This document shows, piece after piece, positions 7,720-32,000 of a DNA stretch of 32,000 nt. The notes under the pieces were generated by a model. That model was not told where the DNA came from. It made no database searches and saw only the letters and a list, made by a program, of their open reading frames with translations. Within the stretch, counting starts at the first letter, position 1, and each line of letters begins with the position of its first letter. The position numbers and the translations under genes were made by a program. The stretch is from Eggerthellaceae bacterium. GTDB taxonomy: Bacteria; Actinomycetota; Coriobacteriia; Coriobacteriales; Eggerthellaceae. Where the stretch lies: NCBI GenBank assembly GCA_009782615.1, contig WRIS01000008.1, positions 31,610 to 63,609 on the forward strand, in the 5' to 3' direction.

Positions 7720-7791
7720 GCCTCGTGGGCATGGCAAGACTTTAGAAGGAGCAGGACAGATAAGTACTGAAAGGACGAAAGGAGAGAAATA

Positions 7792-10512: not shown

Positions 10513-10523
10513 GGAGGAAAGAA

Positions 10524-13506: not shown

Positions 13507-13580
13507 CGCTCAAAATCCTTTCGCTTATGTTCTCCCGACACGCACGCGTGCAGGTAGTTAAATCAGGCGTTCTGTTGCTG

Positions 13581-14717
13581 CTATATTATAACCATGTCAT
13601 GGCTTGATTGCGTAAAAACCTCGAAGCCATCACGGGTGATTATGCCGAAATCCTCTAAGCGAATCCCGAATTCATCCTTAAAATAAACGCCTGGCTCAAC
13701 CGTTACCACGTTACCCTCTTCAAGCGGAACGGTATTCTTCTTCGCCAACAGCGGTTCTTCGTGAACATCAATGCCCACTCCATGTCCGAGGGAATGCCCC
13801 ATAGCACCCTCAAAGCCCGCTGCCGCAAGAATATCTTCGGCAAGTTTTTGCATTTCAGCACCACTAACGCCAGGTTTGAGCTGCGCTTCCACTTCCTCAT
13901 TTGCCTGCCGCACCGCCACATAGGCATCCAGAATACGCGCAGACGGTTCGCCAATAAACACAGTGCGGGTCATGTCTGAACAATACCCCGATACCTGCGC
14001 ACCAAAATCGAGAACGAGCGCCTGCCCTGCTTCAAGTTTCGTCTGCCCTGCAATGGCATGCGGACTTGCTCCGTTGGCACCCGTTGCAACAATCGAAGAA
14101 AAAGCCAGACCTTCAGCCCCTTGGCGAAGCATAAAATCTTCCAGTTCGATTTTTACCTCACGTTCGCTCATGCCCGCTTTGATAAAACTTACGATATGTG
14201 CAAAAGCGGCATCGGTAATCGCTTGTGCGGCTTTTAGCCGTCTTACTTCATCGGCGTCCTTTACGGCCCGAAGTTCAAGAACAAATTTGCTTGTTTCCTT
14301 GATTGTCTGCCCCTTGAGCACTGCTTCAAGTTTGCGATATTCGGCAAGACTCAACTCATCTTCTATCCCGAGCACCATCCCTCGCACCGCCGACTCCCCC
14401 GCTCCCGCCTTGCTAAGCACGCCTTCCTCCAAAAGTGCTGCCAACCATTCCGCATGAGTTTTTTCAACGGCACTCAACTGAATATCAGAACTAAGCGCCG
14501 CTTCTTCCAATGCGTGAATATAGCGAAAGTCAGTATGAAGAAACACCTCTTGAGCCCGAGCCGCAGCAAGCAGCGCATGAGCAGGCTCTCCATCAAACAC
14601 CCCGTCAAACGCACTCAGCCAATACAGGTTAGAAAGATTGCGAACATACAAACCATCGAGGTTTTCGGCTTTCAGCTTTTCGCACAGCCTAGCTATCCGC
14701 GTTTTCGAGTAGGACAT
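13581..14717 (-). CDS. M24-family Xaa-Pro aminopeptidase/dipeptidase (378 aa).
   Basis: The metal-binding and signature region is LDFGAQVSGYCSDMTRT...HSLGHGVGIDVHEEP...VVTVEPGVY. The ATG at 14717 has AAGGAGG 6 nt upstream. The gene overlaps the aroQ 3' end by 29 nt. Confidence 0.85.
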   Translation of the reverse strand: MSYSKTRIARLCEKLKAENLDGLYVRNLSNLYWLSAFDGVFDGEPAHALLAAARAQEVFLHTDFRYIHALEEAALSSDIQLSAVEKTHAEWLAALLEEGVLSKAGAGESAVRGMVLGIEDELSLAEYRKLEAVLKGQTIKETSKFVLELRAVKDADEVRRLKAAQAITDAAFAHIVSFIKAGMSEREVKIELEDFMLRQGAEGLAFSSIVATGANGASPHAIAGQTKLEAGQALVLDFGAQVSGYCSDMTRTVFIGEPSARILDAYVAVRQANEEVEAQLKPGVSGAEMQKLAEDILAAAGFEGAMGHSLGHGVGIDVHEEPLLAKKNTVPLEEGNVVTVEPGVYFKDEFGIRLEDFGIITRDGFEVFTQSSHDMVII

Positions 14718-15129
14718 CAAGCGCCTCCTTGTACCCCTCTTTTCCCTTGCCTTTGATTTGTGCTATGCAAACTGGCGCAATAACCGACAATGCACGGAAA
14801 GGCTCGCGGGCTTCTATGTCGGACAGGTGCACCTCTACCACGGGAATATCAATTGCCGCCACCGCATCGCGCAAAGCATACGAATAGTGGGTATGCGCGC
14901 CTGGGTTGTATACGACACCATCGTAGTGCAAGCATAATGTCTCATGTAATTTGTCGATGAGTACGCCTTCATGGTTGCTCTGAAAACAATCGACCTTGAC
15001 ACCCTTTTGTTCGCCGTAAGCGACCACTTCTGCTTCCAGAGAAGCAAGCGTATCACTTCCATATACATCAGGTTCACGCCGACCCAAAAGGTTGAGGTTC
15101 GGTCCGTTCAGAAGGAGAATTTTCATCAT
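14689..15129 (-). CDS. aroQ: Type II 3-dehydroquinate dehydratase (146 aa).
   Basis: Motifs: MMKILLLNGPNLNLLGRREPDVYG, NPGAHTHYSYALRDA, VEVHLSDIEAREPFR. The start overlaps the aroB stop as ATGA. Confidence 0.95.
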   Translation of the reverse strand: MMKILLLNGPNLNLLGRREPDVYGSDTLASLEAEVVAYGEQKGVKVDCFQSNHEGVLIDKLHETLCLHYDGVVYNPGAHTHYSYALRDAVAAIDIPVVEVHLSDIEAREPFRALSVIAPVCIAQIKGKGKEGYKEALDVLLENADS

Positions 15130-16253
15130 GTCAAACTCTTTTCTCGCGCTTGAAGATGCTCAAGCACCGTTTCTGTATCTACTTCGACCAATTCCCAACT
15201 GCCTACATCACGCGGCAGCACAAAACGCATTGCCCCCTGCCGCACCTTTTTGTCGCCTTGCATTGCTGCGAGAAGTTCTTCAGGAGCAGCCGTCCAAGTA
15301 AGGGTTTCAAGCCCTAAAGCATCCAATAATTCATCTTGCGCTTGCACGAAATCGGGCGAAGTGCCTACCAGCGCAGCGCCCAAACGCGCCGCAAAACGCA
15401 TGCCCTCGGCTACGGCTTGCCCGTGAGAAAACGTGCCGTAACCTGCGCACAACTCTATCGCGTGCCCAAAAGTGTGTCCGTAATTCAAGCACTCCCGAAT
15501 ACCCTTACCTTCTTTTGTGTCGCGCGCGACCACGTTTGCCTTAAACACCACCGAACGCGTTACCGCTTCCGCTACCGCTGCTTCATCACGGTTTACCAGC
15601 GAAGATGCGCTGTCAACAAGCCAAAAGAAAAATTCATCGGAATCAATTACTGCTGATTTCGCAATTTCGGCAAAGCCACACACCCATTCTTTATCGGGAA
15701 GGGTTTCCAGGGTGTCAACCGAGGCGCACACGTGAAGTGGCTGGGTGAAGGTGCCCACCAAATTCTTGCCTGCACCCAAATTGATACCCGTTTTTCCGCC
15801 CACCGAAGAATCAACCATAGAAAGCAAGCTTGTGGGAATCTGAATAACGCCGACTCCGCGCATATAGGTCGAAGCAACAAAGCCTGCGATATCGCCGACA
15901 ACACCGCCACCTAGGGCAAACACCTTGCCATCACGCGGAAACTTCGTGTTCGCCATCGCTTCCCAAATTTCAGTGGCGCAATCAATCGATTTTGATGCTT
16001 CACCCGCAGGCAACACGATATCGACAACCCGATACTTTGCTGCTGCTAAAGATTGCTTGAGGACAGAAAGATACAACGGTGCAACATTGCTATCGCTGAT
16101 GATAAGTGCTTGTTGGTTTGCTTGTTGATTTGCCTGTTGATTCGCGTTGCTTTTCTGCAGATGGGCGCCCAGCCCTTCGAGAAGGGATTTCCCAATCCTC
16201 ACCTCATAAGAAGGTTCATCAACAAGATTGACAACTACTTTGGTGATTGGCAT
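15126..16253 (-). CDS. aroB: 3-dehydroquinate synthase (375 aa) with an N-terminal QQAN-repeat insertion.
   Basis: Motifs: GGGVVGDIAGFVASTYMRGV, VDSSVGGKTGINL, LNYGHTFGHAIE. Confidence 0.95.
   Translation of the reverse strand: MPITKVVVNLVDEPSYEVRIGKSLLEGLGAHLQKSNANQQANQQANQQALIISDSNVAPLYLSVLKQSLAAAKYRVVDIVLPAGEASKSIDCATEIWEAMANTKFPRDGKVFALGGGVVGDIAGFVASTYMRGVGVIQIPTSLLSMVDSSVGGKTGINLGAGKNLVGTFTQPLHVCASVDTLETLPDKEWVCGFAEIAKSAVIDSDEFFFWLVDSASSLVNRDEAAVAEAVTRSVVFKANVVARDTKEGKGIRECLNYGHTFGHAIELCAGYGTFSHGQAVAEGMRFAARLGAALVGTSPDFVQAQDELLDALGLETLTWTAAPEELLAAMQGDKKVRQGAMRFVLPRDVGSWELVEVDTETVLEHLQAREKSLT
16108..16146. repeat. In-frame 12-bp tandem repeat (about 3 units) inside aroB, encoding (ANQQ)3.
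   Basis: The plus strand reads tgcttgttggtt tgcttgttgatt tgcctgttgatt cgc. The minus-strand translation is NANQQANQQANQQA, inserted just before the conserved LIISD...APLY strand. Confidence 0.85.
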
Positions 16254-16882
16254 AAAACCCCTTCTTTTTTCAGCGCCGCAACAACTTCACTCGCTATTGC
16301 GTTCACGTTTTTATTCGCGGTATCAATGGTAATACGTGCCACTTCTTCGTAAAGCGGTGCCCTTGTCTCACTTATCTTGCGCGCCGCTTCCAAATCACGA
16401 AACAGGGGGCGCGTTGCTTTGTTGCTGATGCGCGTTGCCGCTTCGTCGGCAGATACTTTGAGATGCACTACACAGCCGCGGGTTTTCAAAAGCGTTCGAT
16501 TTTCTGATTTCATAACCACTCCGCCACCGCACGAAATCAACTGCGGGTCTTTGTCGGCGAGTTCACAAAGCACTTCGCTTTCAAGTGCACGAAAGCCCTC
16601 TTCACCCGATTCGGCGAAAACGTCGGCTATCCGCTTGCCGATGCGCCGCTCAAGATAGGTGTCAACGTCAATAGCAGCAAGCCCGCACATGCGCGCTATC
16701 TTGCGTGCAATCGAAGTTTTTCCTGCCCCCATGAAGCCTACCAAAAAGACAGGTGTTTTCAGCGCATAGTTCTTCTGTGCCGCAGGGCTTTTCGCCATAG
16801 GACGACTCCCAGCCGCAGGGCTTTTCGCCACAGGACGGCTCTTCTTTGCAGAACGGTCTTTCGTCATAGGGCGATTTTTCAT
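16235..16882 (-). CDS. aroK: Shikimate kinase (215 aa) with a ~45-aa basic, Pro/Ala-rich N-terminal extension.
   Basis: A Walker A motif, GFMGAGKTSIARK, is followed by typical shikimate kinase core motifs (DVDTYLE, ISCGGGVV). The start overlaps the aroC stop as ATGA. Confidence 0.9.
   Translation of the reverse strand: MKNRPMTKDRSAKKSRPVAKSPAAGSRPMAKSPAAQKNYALKTPVFLVGFMGAGKTSIARKIARMCGLAAIDVDTYLERRIGKRIADVFAESGEEGFRALESEVLCELADKDPQLISCGGGVVMKSENRTLLKTRGCVVHLKVSADEAATRISNKATRPLFRDLEAARKISETRAPLYEEVARITIDTANKNVNAIASEVVAALKKEGVLCQSPK
16779..16844. repeat. 33-bp tandem duplication (2 units) in the 5' extension of aroK.
   Basis: Unit 1 is gccgcagggcttttcgccataggacgactccca. Unit 2 is gccgcagggcttttcgccacaggacggctcttc. 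They encode SRPVAKSPAAG / SRPMAKSPAAQ. Confidence 0.85.
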
Positions 16883-18051
16883 CGTGACATAGTTCTTACG
16901 CGTTGCTTGTAGGCCTTGATAGCCGCTTTGATATCAAGCATGGTATCACTGCCGAACTTTTCGAGGTATGCGTTTGCCAAAACAAAGGCAACTTCACTTT
17001 CAGCAACAACCGCACACGCAGGAACAGCACAAATATCGCTGCGCTCGGTGGACGCTTCTTCAGCTTCCAGAGTGTCCATATTCACCGTTTGCAGCGGCTG
17101 TGCCAAGGTGGGAATAGGCTTCATTGCCACGGTTGCAATCAGGGGCATTCCCGTGGTCATGCCACCTTCCAAGCCGCCTGCGTTGTTGCTTTCGCGGGTA
17201 AAGCCAGTCTTTTTGTTGACGGCGATGGGGTCGTGCACCTGTGAACCCAGCTGCGAAGCGGCTTCAAAGCCGATGCCGAATTCGACCCCTTTGATTGCGG
17301 GGATAGAAAACAGGGCGCTTCCCAACTGCCCATTGAGTCTTTTCGTGGGAGTTGTATAGTCTCCCAAACCAGGAAGCAAACCCGTGACTACCACGCGAAA
17401 AACACCCCCGAGGCTCTCTCCTGCTTCGCGTGCCTCGTCGATAGCTGCTTTCATCGCTTCGCTCGTTTTCTTATCGGGGCAACGAACCTCGCTCATTTCG
17501 ATATCGAGCGGCTTATAATCAGGGGCTGCAAGCATCGGCTGGTCCTCGGCAAGCTGAACCGAACCAATGCGAACAACATAGGAAAACACCTCAACGCCCA
17601 AATCTGCCAAAAACTCACGGGCAATACCCGCAGCGGCAACGCGCGCCGCCGTTTCACGAGCACTGGCACGTTCTAAGATGTTGCGACAATCATCCGCGCC
17701 GTATTTCAGCGCGCCCACTAAATCGGCGTGCCCAGGACGCGGAGTGAGCTCCCGAACAAGATCCTTTGGAGCAGCGCCCATAAGCGCCATCGTTTGGCTC
17801 CAATTTTTCCAATCCTTGTTTTCAATTTGAAGCGCAATGGGGCTGCCGATGCTTTTCCCGAAACGCATTCCTGACAAGATTTTCACCTTATCGGTTTCGA
17901 TTGTCTGGCGTCCACCGCGACCATAACCGCCCTGCCTTCGCGCAAGGTCGGTGTTGATTTGGGTTTCTGATATTTTCAAGCCAACGGGAACCCCGCTCAC
18001 AATGGTGGTGAGCACAGGTCCATGACTTTCTCCTGCAGTGATGTAGTGCAT
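16879..18051 (-). CDS. aroC: Chorismate synthase (390 aa).
   Basis: The product starts MHYITAGESHGP and continues ...RRQGGYGRGGRQ...RPGHAD. The track start at 18084 adds 11 aa not seen in the family. Confidence 0.95.
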   Translation of the reverse strand: MHYITAGESHGPVLTTIVSGVPVGLKISETQINTDLARRQGGYGRGGRQTIETDKVKILSGMRFGKSIGSPIALQIENKDWKNWSQTMALMGAAPKDLVRELTPRPGHADLVGALKYGADDCRNILERASARETAARVAAAGIAREFLADLGVEVFSYVVRIGSVQLAEDQPMLAAPDYKPLDIEMSEVRCPDKKTSEAMKAAIDEAREAGESLGGVFRVVVTGLLPGLGDYTTPTKRLNGQLGSALFSIPAIKGVEFGIGFEAASQLGSQVHDPIAVNKKTGFTRESNNAGGLEGGMTTGMPLIATVAMKPIPTLAQPLQTVNMDTLEAEEASTERSDICAVPACAVVAESEVAFVLANAYLEKFGSDTMLDIKAAIKAYKQRVRTMSR

Positions 18052-18125
18052 AGGCTGTCCTTCACATAAAAGAGATACGAACAAGGGCTATGGCGCGCAT
18101 AAATCAAAAAGATTTTATCACCTTT

Positions 18126-19052
18126 TTAGCACTCGAATCCAGCTGCTTGAGCCATAAGGGCAAACATCTCGGCTTGAGTAGCCTGAAAGTCGACGCCCGT
18201 TACTTCGAAAAAGGTGATTGCTGAGGCAACCGCCTGGGAAACAAGCATCCCGCTTCCATCGAAAACGCGGCAACCCGCTTCTTGAGCAGCCCGCACAAGC
18301 GTCGTTTGCCCATGCCCATACACCACATCATAGACCGTTTGATGTTCTTGCAAGCAATCGGTGTTAAACGGAGCTGCGTCCCCTTCCCTCATTCCCAAGG
18401 GAGTGGCGTTGATGATAAGGTCTGCTTCCCCAAACACTTCAGCTGCCGCTGCGCGATAGCTGCTAAAGGCAAAATCTGTTTCCTCGTGTGCTTCACGGAT
18501 GTTGCGATGCCCTTCGCGCAGGGCAGGAAGTTCAATCGGCGCGCGCGCCATGGCTTTAAGTTCCCTGCGATAGGCTAAAAGCGCGGCTTCCGTTCGCTTC
18601 AAATTGCGCCCAAGCAAGGTCGCTTGAGCAGCGCCCGCAAGAGCCGCCGCATGAAAAATAGAAAGCGCCGTGGGACCCGTGCCGCACACGACAATCGTTG
18701 CATCGCAAAAAGAAAAGCCCTGCTCTTCCAGATAGGATATGCACCCCTCGCCATCTTTGTTGTAGGCAAGCAAAGCGTCTCCTTTGCGCACCACCACATT
18801 TGCCCCGCCAGCAAGTTTTGCCGAAGCTGCTTTGATGTTTGCTTCCTCAAAAGCAAGCGGCTTATAGGGCGTGGTGATGTTCAGACCCAGATAGGCGCGC
18901 TTGGCTAAAAAGCTCTTTGCTTGGTTCGCGTCGGCGCAATCCATGAGAGCATATTCCCAGTTTAATCCAAGTTTTTTATAGAGAGCGTTGTGCATCGCAG
19001 GAGATTTCGAATGGGCAATTTGGTGCCCCAAAAGATAGAGTTTTTCTTTCAT
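18126..19052 (-). CDS. aroE: Shikimate dehydrogenase (308 aa).
   Basis: Motifs: MKEKLYLLGHQIAHSKSPAMHNALY...LNITTPYK and the NAD(P) site VCGTGPTALS. The ATG at 19052 overlaps the yqeG stop as ATGA. Confidence 0.9.
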   Translation of the reverse strand: MKEKLYLLGHQIAHSKSPAMHNALYKKLGLNWEYALMDCADANQAKSFLAKRAYLGLNITTPYKPLAFEEANIKAASAKLAGGANVVVRKGDALLAYNKDGEGCISYLEEQGFSFCDATIVVCGTGPTALSIFHAAALAGAAQATLLGRNLKRTEAALLAYRRELKAMARAPIELPALREGHRNIREAHEETDFAFSSYRAAAAEVFGEADLIINATPLGMREGDAAPFNTDCLQEHQTVYDVVYGHGQTTLVRAAQEAGCRVFDGSGMLVSQAVASAITFFEVTGVDFQATQAEMFALMAQAAGFEC

Positions 19053-19651
19053 AGCCGCCCACCCTCTGCTTCGCAGCGTCCTGTCTCGCAAGCCCGCTCT
19101 TCGCAGCGCATCTTATCTTTGCCCCTCATCTCAAAGCCTGCGCCCTCGCAACTTACCCCTTCAGGCTGAAGGTGTCCGATGAACACCTGTTCAAGGTTGC
19201 GTAAAAGCAAGGTGTGCTTCAAATCGTGCTTTACCAAGGGACAAACCAAATAGGCTTTGATGCCGATAAAACGCGCACCCAATACATCGGTAATGAGTTG
19301 GTCACCAATCATAAGCGTACTTGCCCGCTTTGCCCCAATTTTGCGCATCCCCCTTAAAAGCGCAGGCGGAAGCGGTTTTACCGCATGTGAGACGATCGGC
19401 AAATCCAAACGCTTTGCCAAATCGTGAACGCCTTGATGCCAGTTGTTCGACACCAGACAAAACACCACGCCCGCATCACGTGCTGCCCCCAGCCAAAGCC
19501 CCACATCGCGAGGAATCTCGTGGGTATCACGCGTGAATATCGTGTTGTCGATATCAAGCAAAACGTGGCTAAACCCTGCATCAAGGATGTCTTTTTGAAT
19601 ATCAATGGCACTAACGCGCGAGAAATACCTGTCTGGCGTATAAAAACCCAT
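19049..19651 (-). CDS. yqeG: YqeG-family HAD-IIIA phosphatase (200 aa).
   Basis: HAD motif I is LLDIDNTI, followed by LVSNN and MIGDQLITDVLGA. There is a Cys/charged C-terminal tail of about 35 aa. Confidence 0.8.
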   Translation of the reverse strand: MGFYTPDRYFSRVSAIDIQKDILDAGFSHVLLDIDNTIFTRDTHEIPRDVGLWLGAARDAGVVFCLVSNNWHQGVHDLAKRLDLPIVSHAVKPLPPALLRGMRKIGAKRASTLMIGDQLITDVLGARFIGIKAYLVCPLVKHDLKHTLLLRNLEQVFIGHLQPEGVSCEGAGFEMRGKDKMRCEERACETGRCEAEGGRL

Positions 19652-19743
19652 GCAACTACACCTGCCTGGCTTTAAAAAAGTCTTTTACCTGCCTACTACT
19701 GCCTTGCCTACCATCTGCACACCGCCACCCGCAAAGAACCTGC

Positions 19744-20877
19744 TTAATCTTTGTTGATATAGGCCTCGTGTTCTTCATAGGTGGTACTGAAGAAGTGGGA
19801 ACGGTCGCCTTCATGCTTGGTTACGTAGTAGTAATACTCCGTCAATTCAGGATTCGCGGCAGCCTGAATGGAGGCAAGCCCTGGAGAACAGATGGGTCCA
19901 GGAGGAAGCCCCTGATTCTGATAGGTGTTGAAAGGGCTATCTATCGCAAGATGTTCAGGGGTTACGTCAACAACGCCCGCCGCATAAGCCACAGCAGCAT
20001 CAATCTGGAGAAGCATGCCTTCTTCCAAACGATTATAGATAACAGACGAAACCAGTCCTCTTTCTTCTGCAAGCGCCGCCTCACGTTCAATCAAAGAAGC
20101 TATAACCAACACTTCGTAGCGCGATAAACCGTGCTCGCCTGAAAACGCGAAGTCAACCATAGCTGTTTCGGTTTGATACTGAGAAAGCATCATGCGGATG
20201 ATGGAATCTGCTGTTGCATTTCCCTTAAGGGGATACGTTTTGGGGAACAAGAAACCTTCGAGCGAGTTGTTGTATGCGCCTGAAAGGAAGGGGTAATCGC
20301 TTGCGTAGAGGCTCGCATCCTTGGCAAGGGCAAGGAATTCTTCTGCGGGAATCCGCCCCTCGGTTTCTTCTTCTATGCGGGCAGCCGTTTGGGCAAGCGT
20401 CCAGCCCTCAGGAATCGTAAAGGTTTCATAGTTTGCTTCAGGTCCTACCCGCAACAAACCAATTACCTGGTCAAGCGTCATGCCGCCCTTGAAGAGGTAG
20501 AAACCAGGCTTCAATTCGGAAGCAACACCAAGGTCTGCCACGCGCTTAACAAAGTCGTTTGAGTTGGCGATAACGCCTTCAGTTTGAAGAATGGTACCAA
20601 TATCTTTTGCGCCTGAACCGTCGGGAATACTGATTTCAACTTCGTCTCCCTCTTGCAAAGCTGGATTGCCACAACTTTTCAGAAGCGCGCTGCCGCCCCA
20701 AAATACCAGCAAGAACACGATAATCGCCAGGATGCTGGCAGAAAGAATCGGTATTTTGCTCTTTTTCGGTCGAATATGACTCGTGTCATAAGTACGGAAC
20801 TGTCTTTCACCTTTCGCATGAGCTAAACGAGCAGCATGATTGGGGTGGGACGAATACGTGATTTTTCGGGCGGTCAT
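19744..20877 (-). CDS. mltG: Endolytic murein transglycosylase MltG (YceG-like) (377 aa).
   Basis: An N-terminal TM helix (ILSASILAIIVFLLVFWGG) is followed by the YceG signature SPFNTYQNQGLPPGPICSPG. The start at ATG 20877 was chosen to avoid a 47-nt overlap with ruvX. The alternative is GTG 20943. Confidence 0.85.
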   Translation of the reverse strand: MTARKITYSSHPNHAARLAHAKGERQFRTYDTSHIRPKKSKIPILSASILAIIVFLLVFWGGSALLKSCGNPALQEGDEVEISIPDGSGAKDIGTILQTEGVIANSNDFVKRVADLGVASELKPGFYLFKGGMTLDQVIGLLRVGPEANYETFTIPEGWTLAQTAARIEEETEGRIPAEEFLALAKDASLYASDYPFLSGAYNNSLEGFLFPKTYPLKGNATADSIIRMMLSQYQTETAMVDFAFSGEHGLSRYEVLVIASLIEREAALAEERGLVSSVIYNRLEEGMLLQIDAAVAYAAGVVDVTPEHLAIDSPFNTYQNQGLPPGPICSPGLASIQAAANPELTEYYYYVTKHEGDRSHFFSTTYEEHEAYINKD

Positions 20878-20896
20878 GTCTTTTTCTTTCTCGCAT

Positions 20897-21316
20897 TTAC
20901 GGTTGCACAAGCTGCGTATCGAGCCATGCTTGTAAGAATACACTGGCTGCTATCATATCTATTTTTCCGCGCATTTCTCGTTCAGTTAATCCCTTTTCAC
21001 GCAAACTCCGTTTCGCTTCTTGCGAAGAAAGACGCTCATCAACAAAAACGCAGGGTATCGCCGTTTTTGCTTCGATTTCACCTGCAATTTTTCTGACGGC
21101 TTCTGCTTGCGAACCTTCCTCGTGTTTCAGCGTATAGGGAATACCGCAAACAAAAAGTTCGGGCTCCCAATCTTGAAGCACGTGGGAAAACGAAGGAGTG
21201 CAGTTCACAACGTCGTTTGTCAAAAGCACACAAAGCGGAGTCGCAACGCGTCTTTCGGGATCACTGATGGCTATGCCAACACGAACCTTCCCGATATCAA
21301 GTCCCATAACGCGCAT
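20897..21316 (-). CDS. ruvX: Putative pre-16S rRNA nuclease / Holliday junction resolvase-like RuvX (YqgF) (139 aa).
   Basis: The product is MRVMGLDIGKVRVGIAISDPERRVATPL...VFVDERLSS. Confidence 0.9.
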   Translation of the reverse strand: MRVMGLDIGKVRVGIAISDPERRVATPLCVLLTNDVVNCTPSFSHVLQDWEPELFVCGIPYTLKHEEGSQAEAVRKIAGEIEAKTAIPCVFVDERLSSQEAKRSLREKGLTEREMRGKIDMIAASVFLQAWLDTQLVQP

Positions 21317-21395
21317 CACTTATCTGCTTCCAGCCTGCATCGCGTCTACCTGTCCCCACCCTGCATCGTCTATCTCTCTCATATTCCAAAATCGC

Positions 21396-24026
21396 CTAGG
21401 CAAACAGTGCTCGCGCAGCATCCAGTGCTGCCTCCAGCCCGCCTAAATCCTTGCCGCCCGCTTGCGCCATGGTTGCACTACCGCCACCGCCACCTTTGAT
21501 AGCAGGAGAAATGCTTTTGATGATTGCCCCTCCATCAAAGCCTGTCTGAACCGCTTCAGGGGTTCCCGCAGCAAGCAAGAGTGGCGTGCCTTCGTTGTCG
21601 GCACCCAAAACACATGCCCCTGGTTTGGGAAGACGGGTGCGCAAAACATCCCATCCATTACGCAGCGAACCCACGTCTGCCGCACCCACATGGGCGATGA
21701 CAAGAGGATAGCCAACATCAATAGCTTTTTCAGCCAAAGCTTCGAACTCATCGGCACCACGAGATTCCTTTTGACGCTTTTGCGCGTCGGCTGCTTCTTT
21801 CACCACGCGAATCTGCGCGGCTGTTTTTTCGCTCACCTGAAGCAAGGGCACGCGCAGCTGTGTTGCCGTGTCTTTCAGTTCAGACTCTATTTTATTCATA
21901 TAAGCAAGCGCATCAAAGCTGCTGAGAGCTTCAATGCGGCGCAAATTCGCACCGACACTAGCTTCGCTCACAATCTTCACGAAGCCAATTTCGGCCGTGT
22001 TGTTCACGTGCGTACCGCCGCACAGTTCTTGCGAAAAGCCCTGTATGTCTAACACGCGTACCACATCACCATACTTTTCCCCGAAAAGCGCGATGACTCC
22101 TGCTTCGCGTGCCTGAGATATCGTTGTTTCATAAGCGTGAACCGCATGGTTTTCCATGATGGCTTGATTCGCCAGGCGCTCAACCGAAGCTATTTCTTCG
22201 GCGCTCATCGCTTCAAAATGGGTGAAGTCAAAGCGCAGGCGGTTGGAGGCAACGCTTGAACCCGCCTGCTTGACGTGGTCACCTAAAACCGTGCGTAAGG
22301 CACCGTGGAGAATATGAGTCGCCGTGTGATTGCGGCAAACGCGGTTGCGATATCCTTCGTCGATTGCGGCTTGAAGCACCTGGCCAAGCGATACCGTACC
22401 CTGTTTGACCTCAACCGTATGAACAAAGAGCCCGACTTCAGGTTCTTGGACATCACTCACCACCAGATTCATGCCCTCGAAAGACATAGTGCCGATGTCG
22501 GCAACCTGCCCGCCTTTTTCGGCGTAAAACGGCGTTTTATCGCCGATAAGCTGCCCTGTTTCTCCCGCGTGCAATTCTTGAACCCGCAGCCCGTCGCGCA
22601 CGAGCGCCCTCACACACAGCGGGGATACGGTATCCGTGTATCCCACAAATTCGCTCGCCCCAAATTCGGCTGCAATTTCACTCATAACACCACCATAGGT
22701 TGACCAAGCTTTGTCGGTGTCCTTTGCATGAGTTCGTGCGCGCTGCTTTTGTTCTTCCATCAGGCGCACAAATTCTTCGCAGTCAACGCCCACACCAAGG
22801 TCGGCAACAATTTCTTCGGTCACTTCAAAGGGAAATCCGTAGGTATCATGGAGGGTAAACGCATCCAAACCACTGAGCACATCACCTGTCTTATAGCCTT
22901 CGAGTGCCTGGTCAAGATATATTTTTCCCTGCCTCAAGGTTGCTCCGAAACGTTCTTCTTCGGAAAGCACCACCCGTCTTATGAGTTCATGATTTTCAAC
23001 AAGTTCGGGATAGGGCTCACCCATGCGCTTTACCACTTCGTCAACATAGCGGTTCAAAAACGTGCCCTCAACGCCGATAAGCGTGCCCTTCAAAACGGCT
23101 CGACGCAACAGGCGGCGAAGCACGTAACCGCGCCCTTCGTTTGACGGGAGAATACCATCAGCAATCATGAAGGTCACCGCGCGAGCATGATCTGCCATGA
23201 TGCGCAACAACAAATCGTCAGCGGCATCCGCCCCATACGTTTTTTTGGAAAGCGCTTCACCCACGTCAAGCAAGCCGCGCATGACATCCGTTTCGTAGTT
23301 TGACTGCACACCTTGGATAATCGCGGCAATACGCTCAAGACCCATGCCCGTATCAATATTCTTCTTCGGAAGCGGAACAAGGCTTCCATCTTCTTGTCCG
23401 TCATATTGGGTAAACACAAGATTCCAGTACTCCAAATAGCGCTCGCAATCACAACCTGGTGCGCAATCCGCGCTGCCACACCCAAAGACTTCTCCTTGGT
23501 CGTAATAGATTTCCGTACAAGGGCCACACGGACCAGTTGGACCCGCACGCCAGAAATTGTCCTTTTCCCCGAGCCGCGATATGTGCGCATCGGGTACGCC
23601 TAGAGCTTTCCATATCCCGATTGTTTCATCGTCGTCTTGAAAAACGGTGTAGTATAAGCGCTCTCGGTCAAGCCCGAGGTCATCAAGGGAAAATTCGAGC
23701 GCCCAAGCGCACATCTCTTCCTTGAAATAGTCCCCAAAACTGAAATTGCCCAGCATCTCGAAGAAGCTGAAGTGTCTGCCAGTTTTGCCGATTATGTCAA
23801 TATCGCTCGTACGAACGCATTTCTGCACCGTTGTCGCACCTCGATAAGGGGTTTCAAGTTGTTTTTGCTGCAAAAAGTACGGCTTGAACTGAACCATCCC
23901 CGCGCTAGTCAACAGCAGCGAAGGGTCATCAGGTATCAACGACGAAGAAGGAAAGCGCTTACATCCCTTCTTCTCAAAATAGCTGAGATATTTCTCTCGT
24001 ATTTCGGCAACACTCATATATTCCAT
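21396..24026 (-). CDS. alaS: Alanine--tRNA ligase (876 aa).
   Basis: Motifs: EIREKYLSYFEKKGCKRFPSSSLIP, FEMLGNFSFGDYFK, the second-domain HxxxH (NHTATHILH), CGGTHV, and a C-terminal DHHA1-like domain ending in KGGGGGS. The start may instead be the second ATG at 24017. Confidence 0.95.
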   Translation of the reverse strand: MEYMSVAEIREKYLSYFEKKGCKRFPSSSLIPDDPSLLLTSAGMVQFKPYFLQQKQLETPYRGATTVQKCVRTSDIDIIGKTGRHFSFFEMLGNFSFGDYFKEEMCAWALEFSLDDLGLDRERLYYTVFQDDDETIGIWKALGVPDAHISRLGEKDNFWRAGPTGPCGPCTEIYYDQGEVFGCGSADCAPGCDCERYLEYWNLVFTQYDGQEDGSLVPLPKKNIDTGMGLERIAAIIQGVQSNYETDVMRGLLDVGEALSKKTYGADAADDLLLRIMADHARAVTFMIADGILPSNEGRGYVLRRLLRRAVLKGTLIGVEGTFLNRYVDEVVKRMGEPYPELVENHELIRRVVLSEEERFGATLRQGKIYLDQALEGYKTGDVLSGLDAFTLHDTYGFPFEVTEEIVADLGVGVDCEEFVRLMEEQKQRARTHAKDTDKAWSTYGGVMSEIAAEFGASEFVGYTDTVSPLCVRALVRDGLRVQELHAGETGQLIGDKTPFYAEKGGQVADIGTMSFEGMNLVVSDVQEPEVGLFVHTVEVKQGTVSLGQVLQAAIDEGYRNRVCRNHTATHILHGALRTVLGDHVKQAGSSVASNRLRFDFTHFEAMSAEEIASVERLANQAIMENHAVHAYETTISQAREAGVIALFGEKYGDVVRVLDIQGFSQELCGGTHVNNTAEIGFVKIVSEASVGANLRRIEALSSFDALAYMNKIESELKDTATQLRVPLLQVSEKTAAQIRVVKEAADAQKRQKESRGADEFEALAEKAIDVGYPLVIAHVGAADVGSLRNGWDVLRTRLPKPGACVLGADNEGTPLLLAAGTPEAVQTGFDGGAIIKSISPAIKGGGGGSATMAQAGGKDLGGLEAALDAARALFA

Positions 24027-24159: not shown

Positions 24160-25551
24160 TCAATCGTCCTTGCTCTCGGCGCGCTTCGGTGCCCCGTCTT
24201 TTGAATCTTGCGCGTCGCTTGAGTCGCCCTCTGCTTCTTTGTCGATTTTTCTTTCCCTGCGCAAATCCTTGAGCCGCTTTCCGTAGAGGTGGCTTATCGG
24301 CGTTGTCGGCTGAATCACCCGAGAAGGCGATGTCGCATCGGCGATAGGGTTGATTTTTTCCGCGTCCTCACAGCGAGCAGGAATTCCCTTGAAGAAAACT
24401 CCGTCCTCAGCAACAATTTGGCGCCCAGTTTTCTTTTCGAAATAGTACACGAAAATCGACTTGAATGCAGCGGCGGCAGGAATCGAAACAAGGACACCCA
24501 CCAAACTTCCCATAAGCCCGCCCATCAAGGCACCGATTGCAGAGCCTACCATCAGGGCAATAAAGATAACTGCTGGATGCACATCGACCGAATCAGCCAT
24601 CAGTTTCGGCGTGACGAACGCAGCAACAAACAGTTGAATAGCAACGGTCACGATAAAAGCAATAAGCGCAACCCAAGGACTTACAAACATGCCAACAATG
24701 GCAACCAAGATAGCAGCCAACCATGAGCCAAGGATAGGAATGATGTTCAAAAGACCGATAATACCCGCAAGGGCGCCTGCATTAGGAAGCCCGATAATGG
24801 CAATCGCGATTCCGCAGCAAACCCCGTTTATCGTAGCCGCCACCAGTGTTGCCTTGATGAATCCGCCAATCACCCGCGTGAAGGTAACGTGGAGCATTTC
24901 CGCATCTTGCTCATGCTTTCCCGACACCAAACGCCTGCATTCGCGACCAAGCGCTGGAAGGTCGAGAAGAATCCAAAACGCGATGATAAGCGCAAGGATA
25001 ATAACCAGGGAAAGGCTCAAGACAGAACTTCCGAAACTGACCAGCCCGTCGGCAGAAATCTTTGCCAACTGGCTTGCCCACGTGGTAAGCGTAGAAGTTG
25101 CTTCATTGACCCACGACTCCATGAAGTCGTTTTGAAGAAGCCCGAAATACGCCGCATAAATTTCGTTGAACCAATCAACTATCTGCTGGAAATATGCAGG
25201 GATGTGCTCAATGAGGCTCGTGTACTGATCGCTGATACCAAACACTGGCGAAAAGAGCAGAATGCCAAAGGCGGCAAGCAAAGCAAGCATGCCGATATAG
25301 GCAATCGTGGTGCCCCATAAACGATTGAGTCCCTTTTCTTCCAAGTATCTCACGGGCGTCCGCAAACAAAATACGATGATTGCCGTCCATACGATAACGG
25401 CGAGTGGCATCGAAAGCGTTTGAAGAACATATCCGAGCGCAACGATAAGGAGGACGAGTCCGATAATCGTCCAAACGCGGAAAAAGTTCCTTTGCACTTT
25501 CAGGTCCTTTGCCTGCCCCTGAGGGGAGTGACCAAAATTCAGCAACTTCAC
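24160..25551 (-). CDS. AI-2E family (PerM/UPF0118) permease (463 aa) with a charged C-terminal tail.
   Basis: The body has multiple hydrophobic helices typical of the family, including [21 protein letters not shown]. The GTG start overlaps the upstream stop as GTGA. Confidence 0.7.
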
Positions 25552-28316
25552 GAGCGACCCGAAGTTCTAGATTTTCTCGACGGACTCTCGGAATTCGAAG
25601 CTGGCCGACCGCGCTCAGCAGCAGAAGTTACCTGATGCCCGAGCTTCGAGGCACTCGCTTCCCGAGCGGCTTGCCCCGCTGTTGTTCCGTGGGCTGCCTG
25701 TGCATCAGCCGCTTCTTTGGCAATCTTGTTTGCGCGGGCGAGCGCTGCATCGCGTGCTGCCTTCGCGCCGTCCTCTGCTGTTTGGGCAGGACTTACCGAC
25801 TTGCGAACAGGAGCATCGTTTGGCTTGCGCACGGGAGGAACATCAAGCGGTTTGCGCTGAGGGGCAGCCTCAGGTTTGCGCACGGGAGGAGCCTCACGCG
25901 CGACCCGTGCCTCTCTTGTGTCTCGCACATCTCTCGCATCGCGTGCCTCTCGTGCCCCGCGTCGTTCTTGCGCGGCACGTTCTTTCGCTTCGCGGCGCTC
26001 TCGCGCGGCACGTTCTTTCGCTTCGCGCCGTTCTTGCGCAACGCGTTCTTTGATTTCTCGTCTGCCTTGTGAGGAACGTTCGTAGGCGGATTGTTCTTTA
26101 GCAGCCTGTGCTTCCTTGGCAAGACGTTCTTGTTCGGCGCGGTCTCGTATGGCTTGCTCTTTGGCAGCCTTTGCTTGTTCAGAAAGTTCCTTTTCGGCTT
26201 TTTCTTTTGCAGCCTTATCTTTTGCCGCACGGTCTTTTGCCGCTTTATCTTTCGCTGCTTTTTCTTGATCGGCTTTTTCTTTTTCGGCTTGCTCTTTCGC
26301 CTTTTCCTTCGCGATGCGGTCTTTTTCCGCCTGTTCTCTGGCTGCCTTTTCCTTTGCCGCCTTTTCCTTCGCGGCCTTTTCCCTGGCTGCCTTTTCTTTC
26401 GCAGCTTTTTCCTTTTCGGCTTTTTCCGCATCAAGGCGTGCTTGTTCTTCGCGTTCCTTGGCTTTACGCTCGTTTTCGATTCGTTTTTCTTCTTCGGCAC
26501 GGTTTTGTGCAGCACGTTGCTTTTGTACGGCACGTTCGTCTTCAGCGCGCTGTTCTTGTGCGATGCGTTCTTGTTCGGCGCGCTCTTGTGCGATGCGCAG
26601 CTCTTGTTCAACCCGCTCTTGCATAGCTTGCGCTTGGGCAACCCTTTCTTGCGCGGCGCGTTCTTGAGCAGCCAACATTTCTTCGGCTTTGCGGATTTCT
26701 TCTGCCGCAATTTCTTGAGCAAGTTGTAGTTCCTTGGCTTTGCGAACCTCTTCGGCTGCCAACTTCGCGGCTGCCGCTTGAGCCATGCGCGCTTCGTCTG
26801 CGGCTCTGCGTGCTGCTTCTATTTGGGCGATGCGATCAGCTTCCGCAGCTTCTTGTGCGGCACGTGCGGCGCGCACAATACGCGCTTCTTCTTCAGCTTT
26901 TCTTTGCTGTTTTTCGCGCTGAAGTCGTTGTTCATGAGAAGCCTTTTCGGCTGCTGCCATCTGTGCGGCACGCGCGGCTTCAACCGCTTTGCGTGCTGCC
27001 GCCGCTTGTGCAGCGCGGGCTTCGTCAACGGAATTTTGAGATGTCTGATAGCCCGCGGGATAGCCTGCTTGTTGATAAGCTGCTTGCTGAACGACACCTT
27101 GTGGTGGCTGCACCCGCCCTGTCGGATAGCCCGCTTGTTGGTAACCTGCAGGATAGCCCGACCCTTGAGCCGCCGCTCGAGCTTGAGAATAGCTTGCCGC
27201 CTGAGCAGCATTCTGTTGTGCCTGTGCCCGTGCTGCTTGCGCCTGGGCTTGGGCTTGCGCCTGGGCTTGGGCCTGAGCCTGTGCTTGTGCTTGCGCTTGT
27301 GTTTGCGCCTGAGCCTGCGCCTGTGTTTGCGCTTGTGGCTGTGCTTGTGCTTGAGCCTGCGCTTGTGCTTGCGCCGCAGTATAGGCCGCCATCTGAGACG
27401 GCGTCAGCTGCGTCGCAGGGTTGGTCGTGCGCGGGGCAGGCGGTTGCGCAGCATTTTGCGGCGCTGAAGAACCATAGGTAAAATATCGCTCTTGATCAGA
27501 ATTGTTGGTAGGAGGAGTTACCGAAGCGTTCGCTTGGCGCTGAGCTTGGTTTGCGTTTGCGGCGTTCGCAGCAGGAGTAGCAACCGCAGCACTTGCAGCA
27601 CTTGCCTTCGCCGCACCCCTATTCGCAGCCGCCGCATTAGTCACCGCCGCCGCCGCAGCAGCCGCAGCCGCTCTTCGCTGCTCTTGGGTAAGTTCTGCGC
27701 CCTCGGCGCTTCCCTGCACTGCCGATTCGGCAGGGTTCTTTTCGTCAAGAAGGGCTTCCAACAAGCTTATGGAAGGCTTCTCTGTTTCTTGGGTAAGTCC
27801 TGAAGTTTCACTTTGAGAAGTCGTTTTCGAAGGAAGTGCCGCAGAAACTGCTACGATGCCCGCGTCATTCGCTCTTCCTGCACCCAAAGCAATCGATTCA
27901 GGGCTTGCCTTGCGCTGCTTAAAAGCATTACGGACACGCGAGGTAACGTTGTTCATCAACTCCATGGGAGCGTTTGCCGCAGCATCAACCGCATTCGCCG
28001 CAGACGACAGCGTTCCTGTCACTTCGTTAACGTTTTCCAAGATTTGGTCAATGCGCATCATCTCAAGATTTGCCGCATCCACCGTCAAAGCGACACGTTC
28101 CATCAGAGGGTCTGCCTTTGCCGCAACTGGCTCAAGCGCTACCACGATATTTTCAACATGCTCCAGCGTGGGCATGACTCTTCTACTAATTTCATTAACA
28201 GCAGCACGCGTACGACGAACCATAAGAACCAGTTCGACAACGAACCAAATTAAAGCAAGAACCACCAGAACAGACGCAAATGGCAGTATTAAATTCAAAA
28301 TTTCGGTTATACTCAT
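25548..28316 (-). CDS. Membrane-anchored protein (922 aa) with a DUF948-like N-terminus and an extremely low-complexity body. Function unknown.
   Basis: RBS AGGAGG before the ATG at 28316. Single TM helix ([25 protein letters not shown], followed by RRTR). Heptad-like region of about 100 aa resembling DUF948. Then, in order: an Ala/Ser/Thr-rich linker; an (AQ)n tract; GYPAGYQQ repeats; about 380 aa of E/K/R/A/Q-rich sequence; PPVRKP repeats; and a basic tail. The frame stays open over 2.77 kb. Confidence 0.85.
25966..26031. repeat. 33-bp tandem duplication inside the 922-aa gene.
   Basis: Unit 1 is tcttgcgcggcacgttctttcgcttcgcggcgc. Unit 2 is tctcgcgcggcacgttctttcgcttcgcgccgt. They encode [11 protein letters not shown] / [11 protein letters not shown]. 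Confidence 0.85.
26195..26432. repeat. Degenerate 15-bp periodic repeat encoding ([15 protein letters not shown])n.
   Basis: The plus strand shows reiterated cttttcctt[ct]gc[ac]gc units. The translation is [26 protein letters not shown]...[26 protein letters not shown]. Confidence 0.8.
27213..27377. repeat. Imperfect hexanucleotide repeat (plus strand YTGNGC) encoding an Ala-Gln dipeptide tract of about 55 codons.
   Basis: The translation is [31 protein letters not shown]...[10 protein letters not shown]. Codons alternate among gcc/gca/gcg/gct and cag/caa, so the DNA repeat is not perfect. Confidence 0.9.
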
Positions 28317-28451
28317 GCATCCTCCTACAACTCGAATACTTTACTATACCATGTTCATCTGGAATTCTTTCGAATCGTTACAGTTTTCATAAGGCATTCA
28401 TAGTGCATATTTTAATCGGTTACGCGGGAAAAACGCAGCATTAATCGCATA

Positions 28452-30087: not shown

Positions 30088-31548
30088 TTATGCGTGCGCT
30101 TTTCTCCCCGAAAAAGTCAAAATAAAGGTCGTTCCCTTGCCAGGCACACTTTTTACTTCAATCGTTCCTTTGTGATACAAAACGCCGTGTTTTGCGATGG
30201 CGAGTCCCAAACCTGTACCGCCCGTTTCCTTAGAGCGGCTTTTATCAACGCGGAAAAAGCGTTCGAAAATCTTTTCTTGCATGTCCTCGGGAATTCCCAC
30301 ACCTGTGTCACTCACCCGTATCGCAACGGTGCTATGGTGCTCGACATTTTGTTCATCTGCTTCAGATGCTTCCTTGTTTTTTACTGCCTTGTGTTCGGGG
30401 GCAAAATCAAAGACTTCGATGGCAATTTTCACGCTGCCACCAGGATGATTGTAGCGAATACCATTTTCAACCAGGTTGTACAGCATTTGTTCTGCTACCG
30501 TTTCACTTCCAACGATAATGGCACATTCCCCCGCAAGTTCAAGAGTCACTTCGTTGGTTTCGGCAAAGCCTTGCAGCCGCTCTATTACCTTCGCGGCAAT
30601 CACACACAAATCAACAAGTTTGCCTGAATCCCCCACCGCAGATTCGTCAAGGCGCGACAAAACGAGTACGTCGTCGATGAGGGAGCGCATGGCTTGTGCT
30701 TCTTCGTAAATTAAGCCCGCAAATTTTTGGGAATCGGAAGCCTGCACCATGTTGTTTTGCATGAGTTCCGCATAGCCCGAAATTACCTGTAAGGGAGTTT
30801 TCATCTCATGGCTTACGTTCGAAGAAAAATCACGACGCAAACTTTCCGCAAGCGCTAATTCCTTGTTTTGTTGCTTGAGGGTTTTCTGTTGTTCGTCAAT
30901 ACGCTCAAGAAATGGACTCATTTCGGCATATATCTCATTTTGCAGAGGGTCTTTAAAGTCGAGAGCATCAACTGGCTTCATAATTCTTCGCGTGAGAATT
31001 TTCGAGAGAAAAAACACCAAAAGGGCAACGAGAGCAACGGCTATGACCATCGGAAGCAGCATGTTGCTTAAAAATATCAAAAGCGAATGCCGTGTTTCTG
31101 CCAGCCTGATAATGTTTCCATTTTCCAACTTTACTGCCGCATAAACCGAATCCGTTTGCAGCGTGCCCGAACGGCGCATAAGCGTTGCTTGCCCTTCTTC
31201 GTTTGCCGCTTTCACTTCGGGGCGGTCGGCATGGTTGTCCATATCTTGTGCGCGTACCACACTGTCGTAGAGCACCGTTCCGTCTTGAGCAATCAGGGTA
31301 TAGCGAATCACGCCTGCAAACTGGTCTTTAAGGACAGCGGCAGCTTCCTCTGAAGGAACGGTATTCAGGTAGTCAGCCGCATCATGAGCAAGCAAAACCA
31401 GCGCATCTTCGGCTTCCCGTTCGTAGATAAGATAAAAGATAGCGGTGGTCACCACAGAAAAGAGCACGATAGTGCCCAGCATGAACACGAGAACCGTATT
31501 AAATATCTTCCCCGTGAGGCTTTGTGGTTTGCGGGCTTTCAACGACAT
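30088..31548 (-). CDS. Two-TM sensor histidine kinase (HisKA + HATPase_c) (about 486 aa).
   Basis: The H-box is FSSNVSHEMKTPL, the N-box LVENGIRYN, G1 VSDTGVGIP and G2 GGTGLGLAIAK. There are two hydrophobic helices. The ATG at 31548 overlaps the regulator stop by 1 nt (TGATG). The alternative is ATG 31569. Confidence 0.9.
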   Translation of the reverse strand: MSLKARKPQSLTGKIFNTVLVFMLGTIVLFSVVTTAIFYLIYEREAEDALVLLAHDAADYLNTVPSEEAAAVLKDQFAGVIRYTLIAQDGTVLYDSVVRAQDMDNHADRPEVKAANEEGQATLMRRSGTLQTDSVYAAVKLENGNIIRLAETRHSLLIFLSNMLLPMVIAVALVALLVFFLSKILTRRIMKPVDALDFKDPLQNEIYAEMSPFLERIDEQQKTLKQQNKELALAESLRRDFSSNVSHEMKTPLQVISGYAELMQNNMVQASDSQKFAGLIYEEAQAMRSLIDDVLVLSRLDESAVGDSGKLVDLCVIAAKVIERLQGFAETNEVTLELAGECAIIVGSETVAEQMLYNLVENGIRYNHPGGSVKIAIEVFDFAPEHKAVKNKEASEADEQNVEHHSTVAIRVSDTGVGIPEDMQEKIFERFFRVDKSRSKETGGTGLGLAIAKHGVLYHKGTIEVKSVPGKGTTFILTFSGRKAHA

Positions 31549-32000
31549 CACTGGGGCAACTTCATGCAATACCCGACACCTCGCACGGTATAGATATAAG
31601 CATCAGTCCCAGGAAGAACCGCTGCAAGTTTTTGGCGCAGTGTTTGCACGTGAACATCAACGGTGCGCGTGCCACCCGCATACGCCATATCCCACACTTC
31701 TTTGAGCAGCTGCCCGCGCGAAAAAACCTGTCCGATGTTGCGCATGAGGGTGTAGAGCAAATCGAATTCCTTTAAGGTGAGTTCGACTTCCTTCCCACCC
31801 GCATAAACGGTATGGCTCGCCACCGAAATGCTGATATCTCCGCACGTCAACTGCTTTTGTTCACCAGGCGCTGTTTCGCCAACGCGGCGAAGAAGGGCGT
31901 TTATCCGAGAGACCAGCTCCATCATGCCAAAAGGTTTTGCCAAATAGTCATCGGCACCTGCATCAAGCCCGCAGACCTTGTCGTATTCGGTACCTTTTGC
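31548..32000 (-). CDS. OmpR/PhoB-type response regulator. The C-terminal ~150 codons are in the window; the N-terminus lies beyond the right edge.
   Basis: Manual translation to the window edge gives ...AKGTEYDKVCGLDAGADDYLAKPFGMMELVSRINALLRR (end of the receiver domain). The winged-helix output domain follows: LTLKEFDLLYTLMRN...RTVDVHVQTLRQKL...IYTVRGVGY. Confidence 0.9.
   Translation of the reverse strand, partial: AKGTEYDKVCGLDAGADDYLAKPFGMMELVSRINALLRRVGETAPGEQKQLTCGDISISVASHTVYAGGKEVELTLKEFDLLYTLMRNIGQVFSRGQLLKEVWDMAYAGGTRTVDVHVQTLRQKLAAVLPGTDAYIYTVRGVGYCMKLPQ

Follow-up and report, generated by a model that had tools for sequence, protein, structure and literature searches.

A probable Coriobacteriia member of the DUF948 (FacZ/YtxG) family with a hypertrophied, low-complexity tail in one small Eggerthellaceae lineage

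The window analysed here is a 32,000-nucleotide stretch of DNA from an Eggerthellaceae bacterium (assembly GCA_009782615.1, contig WRIS01000008.1, positions 31,610 to 63,609 of the forward strand), and our subject is a minus-strand gene that encodes a 922-residue protein. The gene lies in the order rarA - DUF948 gene - AI-2E permease - alaS, as do its orthologues. An initial annotation, made from the letters alone, had described the product as a membrane-tethered and almost entirely low-complexity protein; the open reading frame (ORF) was confirmed at the positions given there, 25548..28316. Both the family and its architecture turned out to be known already: the protein probably belongs to a family of small membrane-anchored proteins whose tail has grown by ~640 residues in one small lineage. 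Its parts are listed below, with structural confidence given as pLDDT (the predicted local distance difference test) and tandem repeats as found by Tandem Repeats Finder (TRF).

25548..28316 (-): whole ORF, a DUF948/FacZ-like membrane-anchored protein with a hypertrophied tail (frame 0 free of stops, coding signal in all segments)
28218..28301 (-): single transmembrane (TM) helix, ~residues 6-33 (hydropathy >1.6 solely in windows starting at residues 1-18)
27921..28217 (-): membrane-proximal helical stalk, residues 34-132, a DUF948-like conserved core that contains the motif LTVDAANLE(I/M)MRxDQILE (Pfam, AlphaFold2, periodicity)
27486..27881 (-): variable Ala/Ser/Thr/Glu linker including poly-Ala, residues 146-277 (mostly low pLDDT; counterpart of the acidic linker of orthologues)
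27474..27485 (-): YFTY short linear motif, residues 278-281, the ancestral near-C-terminal motif of the family (Y[FY]TY in 72/80 species orthologues)
27165..27401 (-): Ala/Gln tract, residues 306-384, predicted helical (TRF 6-nt unit x23, 73% matches; single-sequence AlphaFold2 helix 306-384, pLDDT ~64-77)
27027..27164 (-): Gly/Tyr/Pro/Gln-rich segment with GYPAGYQQ units, residues 385-430, predicted disordered (composition, AlphaFold2 coil)
25899..27026 (-): charged Ala-rich A/E/R/K/Q helix of 376 residues, 431-806 (continuous helix in single-sequence AlphaFold2, pLDDT 55-84)
26133..26468 (-): Lys/Glu-rich (KEKAA)n core resembling a single alpha-helix, residues 617-728, specific to the window (charge and pair scores; 15/30/45-nt repeats; relatives Lys-poor)
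25791..25898 (-): PPVRKP-type proline/basic repeats, residues 807-842, predicted disordered (24-nt repeat x2.9; AlphaFold2 coil)
25551..25790 (-): terminal region, a low-confidence helix at residues 843-896 followed by a basic Ser/Arg tail at 897-922 (AlphaFold2, comparison with relatives)

All the compositional elements that the initial annotation had named (poly-Ala, AQ tract, GYPAGYQQ units, a charged block of ~380 residues, PPVRKP repeats and Ser/Arg tail) are present, the charged block being residues 431-806. The gene is real and frame 0 is its true frame, since no stop interrupts it over 922 codons (the other two frames have 20 and 38), its coding log-likelihood is positive in all of six segments whereas that of frames 1 and 2 is negative in all, and its synonymous codons for A, E, K, R and Q agree with those of the alaS, rarA, permease and kinase genes. 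Purines are strongly enriched in the coding strand (the plus strand has an AT skew of -0.63 in 26001-27000), so that long ORFs arise cheaply in this region; many spurious ones lie over the gene, in other frames and on the opposite strand, in 25793-27481 (e.g., 25793..26722 (-), 309 residues, and 26091..26729 (+), 212 residues). Imperfect DNA tandem repeats underlie the low-complexity segments, with units of 6 nt (x23), 15/30/45 nt, 33 nt and 24 nt and 63-89% matches (TRF).

When the full-length protein was compared with Pfam and NCBIfam, no match was obtained. Residues 1-164 alone matched DUF948 (PF06103; E=1.5-2e-4, ~22 bits (22.3)), with residues 9-103 aligned to profile positions 4-84 of 89; the DUF948-like N-terminus proposed earlier was thus recovered, at a score below the gathering score. 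PF06103 was the top family for 27/27 aligned orthologues (best E=8.9e-10), always at about positions 4-86 of 89, and is the only consistent Pfam match of the Coriobacteriia family defined by the first ~145 residues. Searching with residues 1-148 gave 47 homologues, 159-258 residues long, most of them already annotated as PF06103 and some named DUF948 proteins by NCBI (Raoultibacter, Parvibacter or Slackia). Neither Pfam nor NCBIfam revealed a domain in residues 165-922, submitted as middle and C-terminal pieces, in line with the earlier statement that no globular domain follows the N-terminus, and no PDB sequence matched the family profile at E<=1. The nearest relatives of the protein are all Eggerthellaceae, which agrees with the Coriobacteriia origin that had been assumed.

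The family has a described biology, contrary to the initial annotation, which knew of no described function for such a protein in Coriobacteriia: for DUF948 proteins, the FacZ/YtxG family, phenotypes in division and envelope have been published (PMC10914604, PMC12716459). Staphylococcus aureus FacZ (formerly YtxG in Bacillus subtilis), whose homologues were mapped via DUF948 by the authors, was described by Bartlett et al. 2024 as a protein with a short extracellular N-terminus, an N-terminal TM segment, a coiled coil next to the membrane and a C-terminal tail that is disordered and carries a functional motif (PMC10914604). It is predicted to assemble into 3-4-mer "anchors" with a cytoplasmic reach of ~15 nm. 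It binds GpsB through the motif NRHYRR of its tail, and it prevents aberrant placement of the Z-ring and of the division site; B. subtilis FacZ is devoid of the GpsB motif, yet affects membrane invaginations and FtsZ placement (PMC10914604). Double CRISPR interference (double-CRISPRi) showed negative genetic interactions between ytxG and ezrA (PMC12716459).

The window protein is predicted to follow the same plan: a short outside N-terminus, a single N-terminal TM helix, a heptad-patterned cytoplasmic stalk of ~15 nm and a non-globular tail with a short conserved motif. Its TM helix is the sole hydrophobic segment and is flanked by MSITE (net charge -1) and by RRTR at residues 34-37 (+3). The positive-inside rule and the topology of FacZ predict an N-out/C-in orientation with a cytoplasmic tail, as the initial annotation had deduced from the single helix and RRTR. 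Inside the predicted helix, at residues 24-28 (28233-28247), E28 is invariant and W24 nearly invariant across the family, and this buried charge could mean helix-helix contacts, through either self-association or the neighbouring permease. When AlphaFold2 was run with a 27-sequence alignment, residues 3-132 formed one helix (pLDDT 81.7), and the hydrophobic period of the stalk is 3.5 residues, above the 95th percentile of shuffles. Prolines recur in the stalk (residues 49-70, 28107-28172): P63 and P70 are invariant in both alignments and P49 is invariant or nearly so. The helix is broken at these prolines in the single-sequence model and unbroken in the alignment-based one, and the database proteins P0047, P0174 and P0186 carry extra copies of a ~11-22-residue LxPxxxx unit. 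The stalk may be a proline-punctuated amphipathic repeat instead of a plain rod.

The tail of the window protein is dominated by the charged helix, which, if fully helical, would measure ~56 nm (0.15 nm per residue). Its first part, residues 431-616, is ~40% charged and resembles an A/E/Q/R extension found in the closest relatives (see below). In residues 617-728 and 757-784, charged residues make up a fraction of 0.54-0.64 and hydrophobic ones 0.07 at most; Gly and Pro are missing, and the scores for i/i+4 pairs of opposite charge are the highest. No 3.5-residue (heptad) period was detected in residues 433-808, where the periods are ~4.9-5.3. Because opposite-charge pairs are dense, hydrophobic residues few and a heptad period absent, the charged block looks, in the models, like a single alpha-helix (SAH) and not like a coiled coil; of the two kinds of spacer that the initial annotation had offered, the AlphaFold2 helix is consistent with the former, and the heptad seam of the latter is missing. 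Charged SAH ("ER/K") domains are known in myosin VI/X and caldesmon. Like these, residues 617-728 and 757-784 are more than 50% charged, carry i/i+4 Glu-Lys/Arg pairs without Gly, Pro or heptads, and lie within one predicted long helix; unlike them, the predicted window helix is much richer in Ala (28%) and Gln and is set in a bacterial membrane-anchored protein. Residues 617-842 contain (KEKAA)n, ([10 protein letters not shown])n and PPVRKP units, and helix 843-896 bears AARDAAL / [12 protein letters not shown] blocks common to two of the relatives, L001 and L081. The net charge of residues 617-922 is +25, which brings the whole tail to +22. For the last 200 residues (723-922), no homologue was found at E<=1e-3 among 8000 candidates from a collection of 5.8 billion protein clusters, which argues against a fusion with a known separate protein.

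To place this tail in its family, one genome per GTDB species was scanned, which yielded 80 Eggerthellaceae-type loci. The orthologues are 199-317 residues long (median ~245) in 79/80 species, the exception being L001 with 515 residues. Y[FY]TY is near-invariant, occurring in 72/80 of them, with the C-terminus 2-73 residues away except in L001; it is often preceded by K/G/A and stands amid otherwise unconserved acidic tails (L002-L080). YFTY looks like an uncharacterised short linear interaction motif. The net charge of the orthologue tails past residue 145 has a median of -8 and is negative in 99%; between the family median and the window protein, the tail charge thus flips from about -8 to +22. 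In the window protein, 641 residues follow YFTY, the longest such extension of its clade. The initial annotation had named a much shorter ORF in related genomes, with no synteny to the permease, as evidence that would tell against it: the ORF is indeed much shorter in these species, and the synteny is retained.

A long extension past YFTY is limited to a small clade, composed of the window, L001 (a GTDB metagenome-assembled genome (MAG), 515 residues), the metagenome contigs L081 and L082 (583 and 582 residues, from a metagenome scan) and the database proteins P0053 and P0057 (460 and 589 residues, from an exhaustive search of representatives). The five relatives are 74-83% identical to the window protein over the first 145 residues, the closest being L001 (MAG Eggerthellaceae Nt197P3bin52, 83%). 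Past YFTY or its position, they carry a Gly/Pro-free Ala/Glu/Gln/Arg stretch of ~200-300 residues (AARKAAEEARxAQEAQ type), followed by a Pro/Ser-rich end; their tails are acidic (-10 to -23) and Lys-poor, and the length of the extension ranges from ~220 to 641 residues across the clade. Short blocks near the extension ends are shared, IA(K/Q/E)(E/D)A..AQAAH and AARDAA(L/I), with otherwise no significant alignment. The AQ tract and GYPAGYQQ segment (residues 282-430), the basic Lys/Glu stretch, the PPVRKP repeats and the Ser/Arg tail are found in the window alone. Several extended relatives, namely L081 (~residues 555-560), P0053, P0054 and P0057, have another short motif in common close to the extreme C-terminus, (S/A)PWP(E/S), which is absent from the window protein.

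In the wider family, ~16 of the best 150 representatives exceed 320 residues, the longest having 589. These long proteins bear unrelated Pro/Ala/Val/Thr-, Gln/Tyr- or Asp/Glu-rich tails, and two of them (P0165, P0179) keep a YFTY-like motif at the extreme end. Given such varied lengths and unrelated compositions, tail length is highly evolvable in this family, and 922 residues is the largest seen. Length outliers of DUF948 proteins need checking, since P0061 (525 residues) is a frameshift chimera: its C-terminal half continues into the permease of the AI-2E family, after which the frame is lost.

The signals around the gene and its downstream neighbour are as follows.

28351-28343 (-): possible extended -10, TGgTATAGT, upstream of the Shine-Dalgarno sequence (a putative promoter)
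28321..28326 (-): Shine-Dalgarno sequence AGGAGG, 4 nt 5' of the ATG (read from the sequence)
25548..25551 (-): GTGA stop/start overlap of the DUF948-gene TGA with the permease GTG (sequence, N-termini of orthologous permeases)
24160..25551 (-): gene for an AI-2E family transporter, whose place downstream is conserved (PF01594, E=1.5e-46)

A scan for consensus sigma-70 promoters and terminators around the DUF948 gene flagged no -35/-10 pair and gave nothing useful, and an Rfam search of the window returned no RNA family. The AI-2E permease lies directly downstream in 78/80 species loci, as well as in L082, L083 and L084, and is followed by alaS where the contig permits; rarA is upstream of the DUF948 gene in 72/80. 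The closest relative, L001, has no upstream rarA despite a 6-kb flank (1-6000), which makes the linkage to rarA looser than that to the permease. As orthologous permeases start with MRLFNG/MQLFDD, which align with the VKLLNFG of the window, the overlapping GTG is likely the permease start. The overlap from which the initial annotation had deduced coupling is thus real, but in relatives the two genes are separated by 23 nt (L083), 40 nt (L082) or ~180 nt (L001), so that the 4-nt overlap is specific to the window and the gene order alone is conserved. In the window, the permease GTG has no Shine-Dalgarno-like sequence ahead of it (25552-25590), and the L082 spacer has GGAG. The window lineage may rely on termination-reinitiation for translation of the permease.

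Further genes lie around this pair. Downstream, a conserved housekeeping block at 12946-24026 (-) comprises alaS, a YqgF/RuvX-like ORF (140 residues, 20897-21319, assigned by resemblance alone), mltG/YceG, a HAD hydrolase gene, aroE, aroC, aroK, aroB, an M24 Xaa-Pro peptidase gene and efp. Upstream of rarA, 30088-31943 (-) encodes a two-component system: the kinase is of HisKA/HATPase_c type, and the OmpR-type response-regulator ORF is partial. At 7036-11144 (+), two ORFs of ~206-227 residues lie on either side of a 906-residue molybdopterin oxidoreductase with Fe4S4, molybdopterin and dinucleotide-binding domains, and together these look like a respiratory module of the dimethyl sulphoxide (DMSO)-reductase family.

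Our reading, to which we give a probability of roughly 0.6, is that an uncultured lineage of Eggerthellaceae has, in the 922-residue protein, its orthologue of the DUF948 (FacZ/YtxG) branch found in Coriobacteriia, with a tail that acts as motif display and spacer. One TM helix would insert the protein N-out/C-in; residues ~34-132 would form a heptad-patterned helical stalk of ~15 nm, probably oligomeric by analogy with FacZ, and the remainder would be a cytoplasmic, largely non-globular tail. Since in FacZ a short motif of the disordered tail binds GpsB, the tail may be a tethered display of short linear motifs, here YFTY, that captures or sequesters cytoplasmic or membrane partners in envelope growth or division. 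In the window lineage, the tail would have been enlarged past YFTY by imperfect tandem duplication, first by the acidic Ala/Glu/Gln/Arg helix common to the clade relatives and later, in the window alone, by the basic Lys/Glu segment resembling an SAH, the PPVRKP repeats and the Ser/Arg tail. The extension would most likely be a long semi-rigid spacer or a bulky bristle of loosely constrained length, whose basic tip would stand tens of nanometres off the membrane; the tether suggested by the initial annotation is plausible. The DUF948 gene would be co-transcribed with the permease gene and, in the window, probably translationally coupled to it.

Several results weigh against this reading. The window protein and ten orthologues, scored singly, reach 22-34 bits, all below the PF06103 gathering score of 37.2 bits. 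Profile searches from the window clade gave ~500 clusters, whose listed top matches are all Coriobacteriia-like, with no Firmicute FacZ among them, and the best 120 matches of a profile aimed at Firmicute FacZ, built from an alignment of divergent members (A3), are solely Coriobacteriia-like proteins of 158-245 residues. As these searches did not reach Firmicute FacZ, the homology is remote and orthology with FacZ putative. The orthologue tails are acidic whereas that of FacZ is basic, and the GpsB motif (S/T/N)RxxR(R/K) has 0 matches in the window protein (14% of its shuffles contain at least one) and is found in 1/80 orthologues, at the TM boundary. The full-length AlphaFold2 model, obtained from a single sequence, has a mean pLDDT of 56.7 and is indicative only, and BLASTP gave no significant alignment between the extensions of the window protein and L001 (E=3.5), as neutral drift would also do. 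Other differences from FacZ are size (922 residues compared with a protein described as 18 kDa), the tail motif (YFTY instead of the GpsB-binding motif of S. aureus FacZ), a tail that is mostly predicted helical instead of disordered, and the conserved linkage of the Coriobacteriia branch to the AI-2E permease and alaS; a FacZ role in actinobacteria is drawn by analogy only.

Two other membrane-anchored proteins offer partial parallels. ZipA is a bitopic N-out/C-in division protein in which a charged region and a flexible Pro/Gln-rich tether lead to a globular FtsZ-binding end domain. The window protein shares with it the predicted orientation, the N-terminal TM helix and the charged and Pro/Gln-rich tether, but has neither an end domain nor sequence similarity. 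The spacer of TolA is periplasmic in diderms, ends in the globular domain III and works with TolQR. The likeness to TolA domain II noted in the initial annotation holds for composition, as in both proteins an N-terminal TM anchor precedes a long Ala/Lys/Glu-rich helical spacer; it does not extend to the location of the tail, predicted to be cytoplasmic in the window protein, to the monoderm family of the organism or to a globular C-terminal domain, which was not detected here. A TolA-like extracytoplasmic spacer was ranked low on the basis of the predicted cytoplasmic orientation and the lack of any Pfam or NCBIfam domain in residues 165-922.

The alternative that survives best, possible although clearly less probable than the motif display and spacer, is that the extension is neutral ballast: the first ~290 residues (TM helix, stalk, linker and YFTY) would be the working protein, and the rest a tolerated runaway of low-complexity expansion. 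An extension that is absent in 79/80 species, consists of tandem repeat units, varies freely in length and sequence among the clade relatives (BLASTP E=3.5) and ends in 200 residues without homologue is what such a process would leave, and other members bear unrelated Pro/Ala-, Gln/Tyr- or Asp/Glu-rich extensions in proteins of 350-590 residues. However, 641 codons have stayed open with host-like synonymous usage although the repeats, at 63-89% matches, are imperfect and old, a helix-favouring A/E/Q/R composition without Gly or Pro is kept in six sequences, and ~640 extra residues are costly to produce.

We consider it doubtful that the DUF948 protein instead serves the AI-2E transporter next to it as a regulatory or accessory subunit, the TM helix with its buried Glu docking onto the permease and the tail regulating or localising it. 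The permease is the direct downstream neighbour even in distant family members, the stop/start overlap and a permease GTG devoid of Shine-Dalgarno sequence in the window fit such a partnership, as do the invariant E28 and nearly invariant W24. The pair nevertheless sits in a larger conserved housekeeping block (rarA...alaS-ruvX-mltG-aro), so that the adjacency may merely reflect an old operon order, and the phenotypes published for DUF948 proteins are those of division and envelope.

A dedicated molecular ruler or condensate scaffold, as the initial annotation had favoured, is still less likely. The charged helix would set a distance and Gln/Tyr/Gly/Pro stickers would drive phase separation, and the membrane anchor, the predicted ~56-nm helix with its SAH-type charge patterning and the Gln-rich and GYPAGYQQ segments are all in place. 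But the sticker segments are specific to the window, and an extension of ~220-641 residues in the clade and absent elsewhere is incompatible with a conserved ruler; the fixed-length version finds no support in orthologues of 199-317 residues or in clade relatives of 460-589 residues without positional homology in the extension. Such free variation in length makes a fixed ruler unlikely and fits a loose spacer or bristle, or a largely neutral expansion. A bolder proposal, which we regard as a long shot, is that this termite-gut-like Eggerthellaceae lineage has equipped a FacZ-family anchor with an SAH arm of >50 nm and a basic tip that links the membrane with the nucleoid or with a partner in division or the envelope, or that nucleates a Gln/Tyr-driven membrane condensate. 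If this is true, bacteria would possess an SAH spacer that sets a distance or organises, with YFTY and the coupled AI-2E permease as its readout.

Finally, an artefact (repeat misassembly, or a frameshift or lost stop fusing a short DUF948 gene to non-coding or out-of-frame sequence) is very improbable: although the purine-rich strand keeps other frames partly open and P0061 is a genuine frameshift chimera with the permease, the coding signal is confined to frame 0 in every segment, five related sequences from independent assemblies retain long in-frame extensions past the same motif, the ORF terminates exactly at the conserved permease start, and its 3' end has no DNA similarity to the intergenic regions of relatives. 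An origin by read-through into the spacer was rejected on the same comparison, in which the last 300 nt of the ORF, set against the intergenic DNA of relatives, showed no similarity except a 25-nt match within the coding tail of L081.

Taken together, these results reveal no new kind of system, and the giant tail is in that sense a curiosity. They tie a striking "orphan" low-complexity giant to a family of known biology, FacZ/YtxG, and delineate a clear branch of DUF948 proteins in Coriobacteriia, marked by a near-invariant tail motif of its own, YFTY, and by a constant genomic partner, the AI-2E permease beside alaS and mltG. None of the papers found describes this branch, with its YFTY motif, fixed synteny and 922-residue, charge-reversed, SAH-like form. 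The growth of the tail from ~100 to 777 residues, with reversal of its charge, is a natural example of the expansion of a membrane-scaffold tail via imperfect repeat duplication, and YFTY and the permease linkage offer handles on a FacZ-like function where the staphylococcal GpsB motif is absent.

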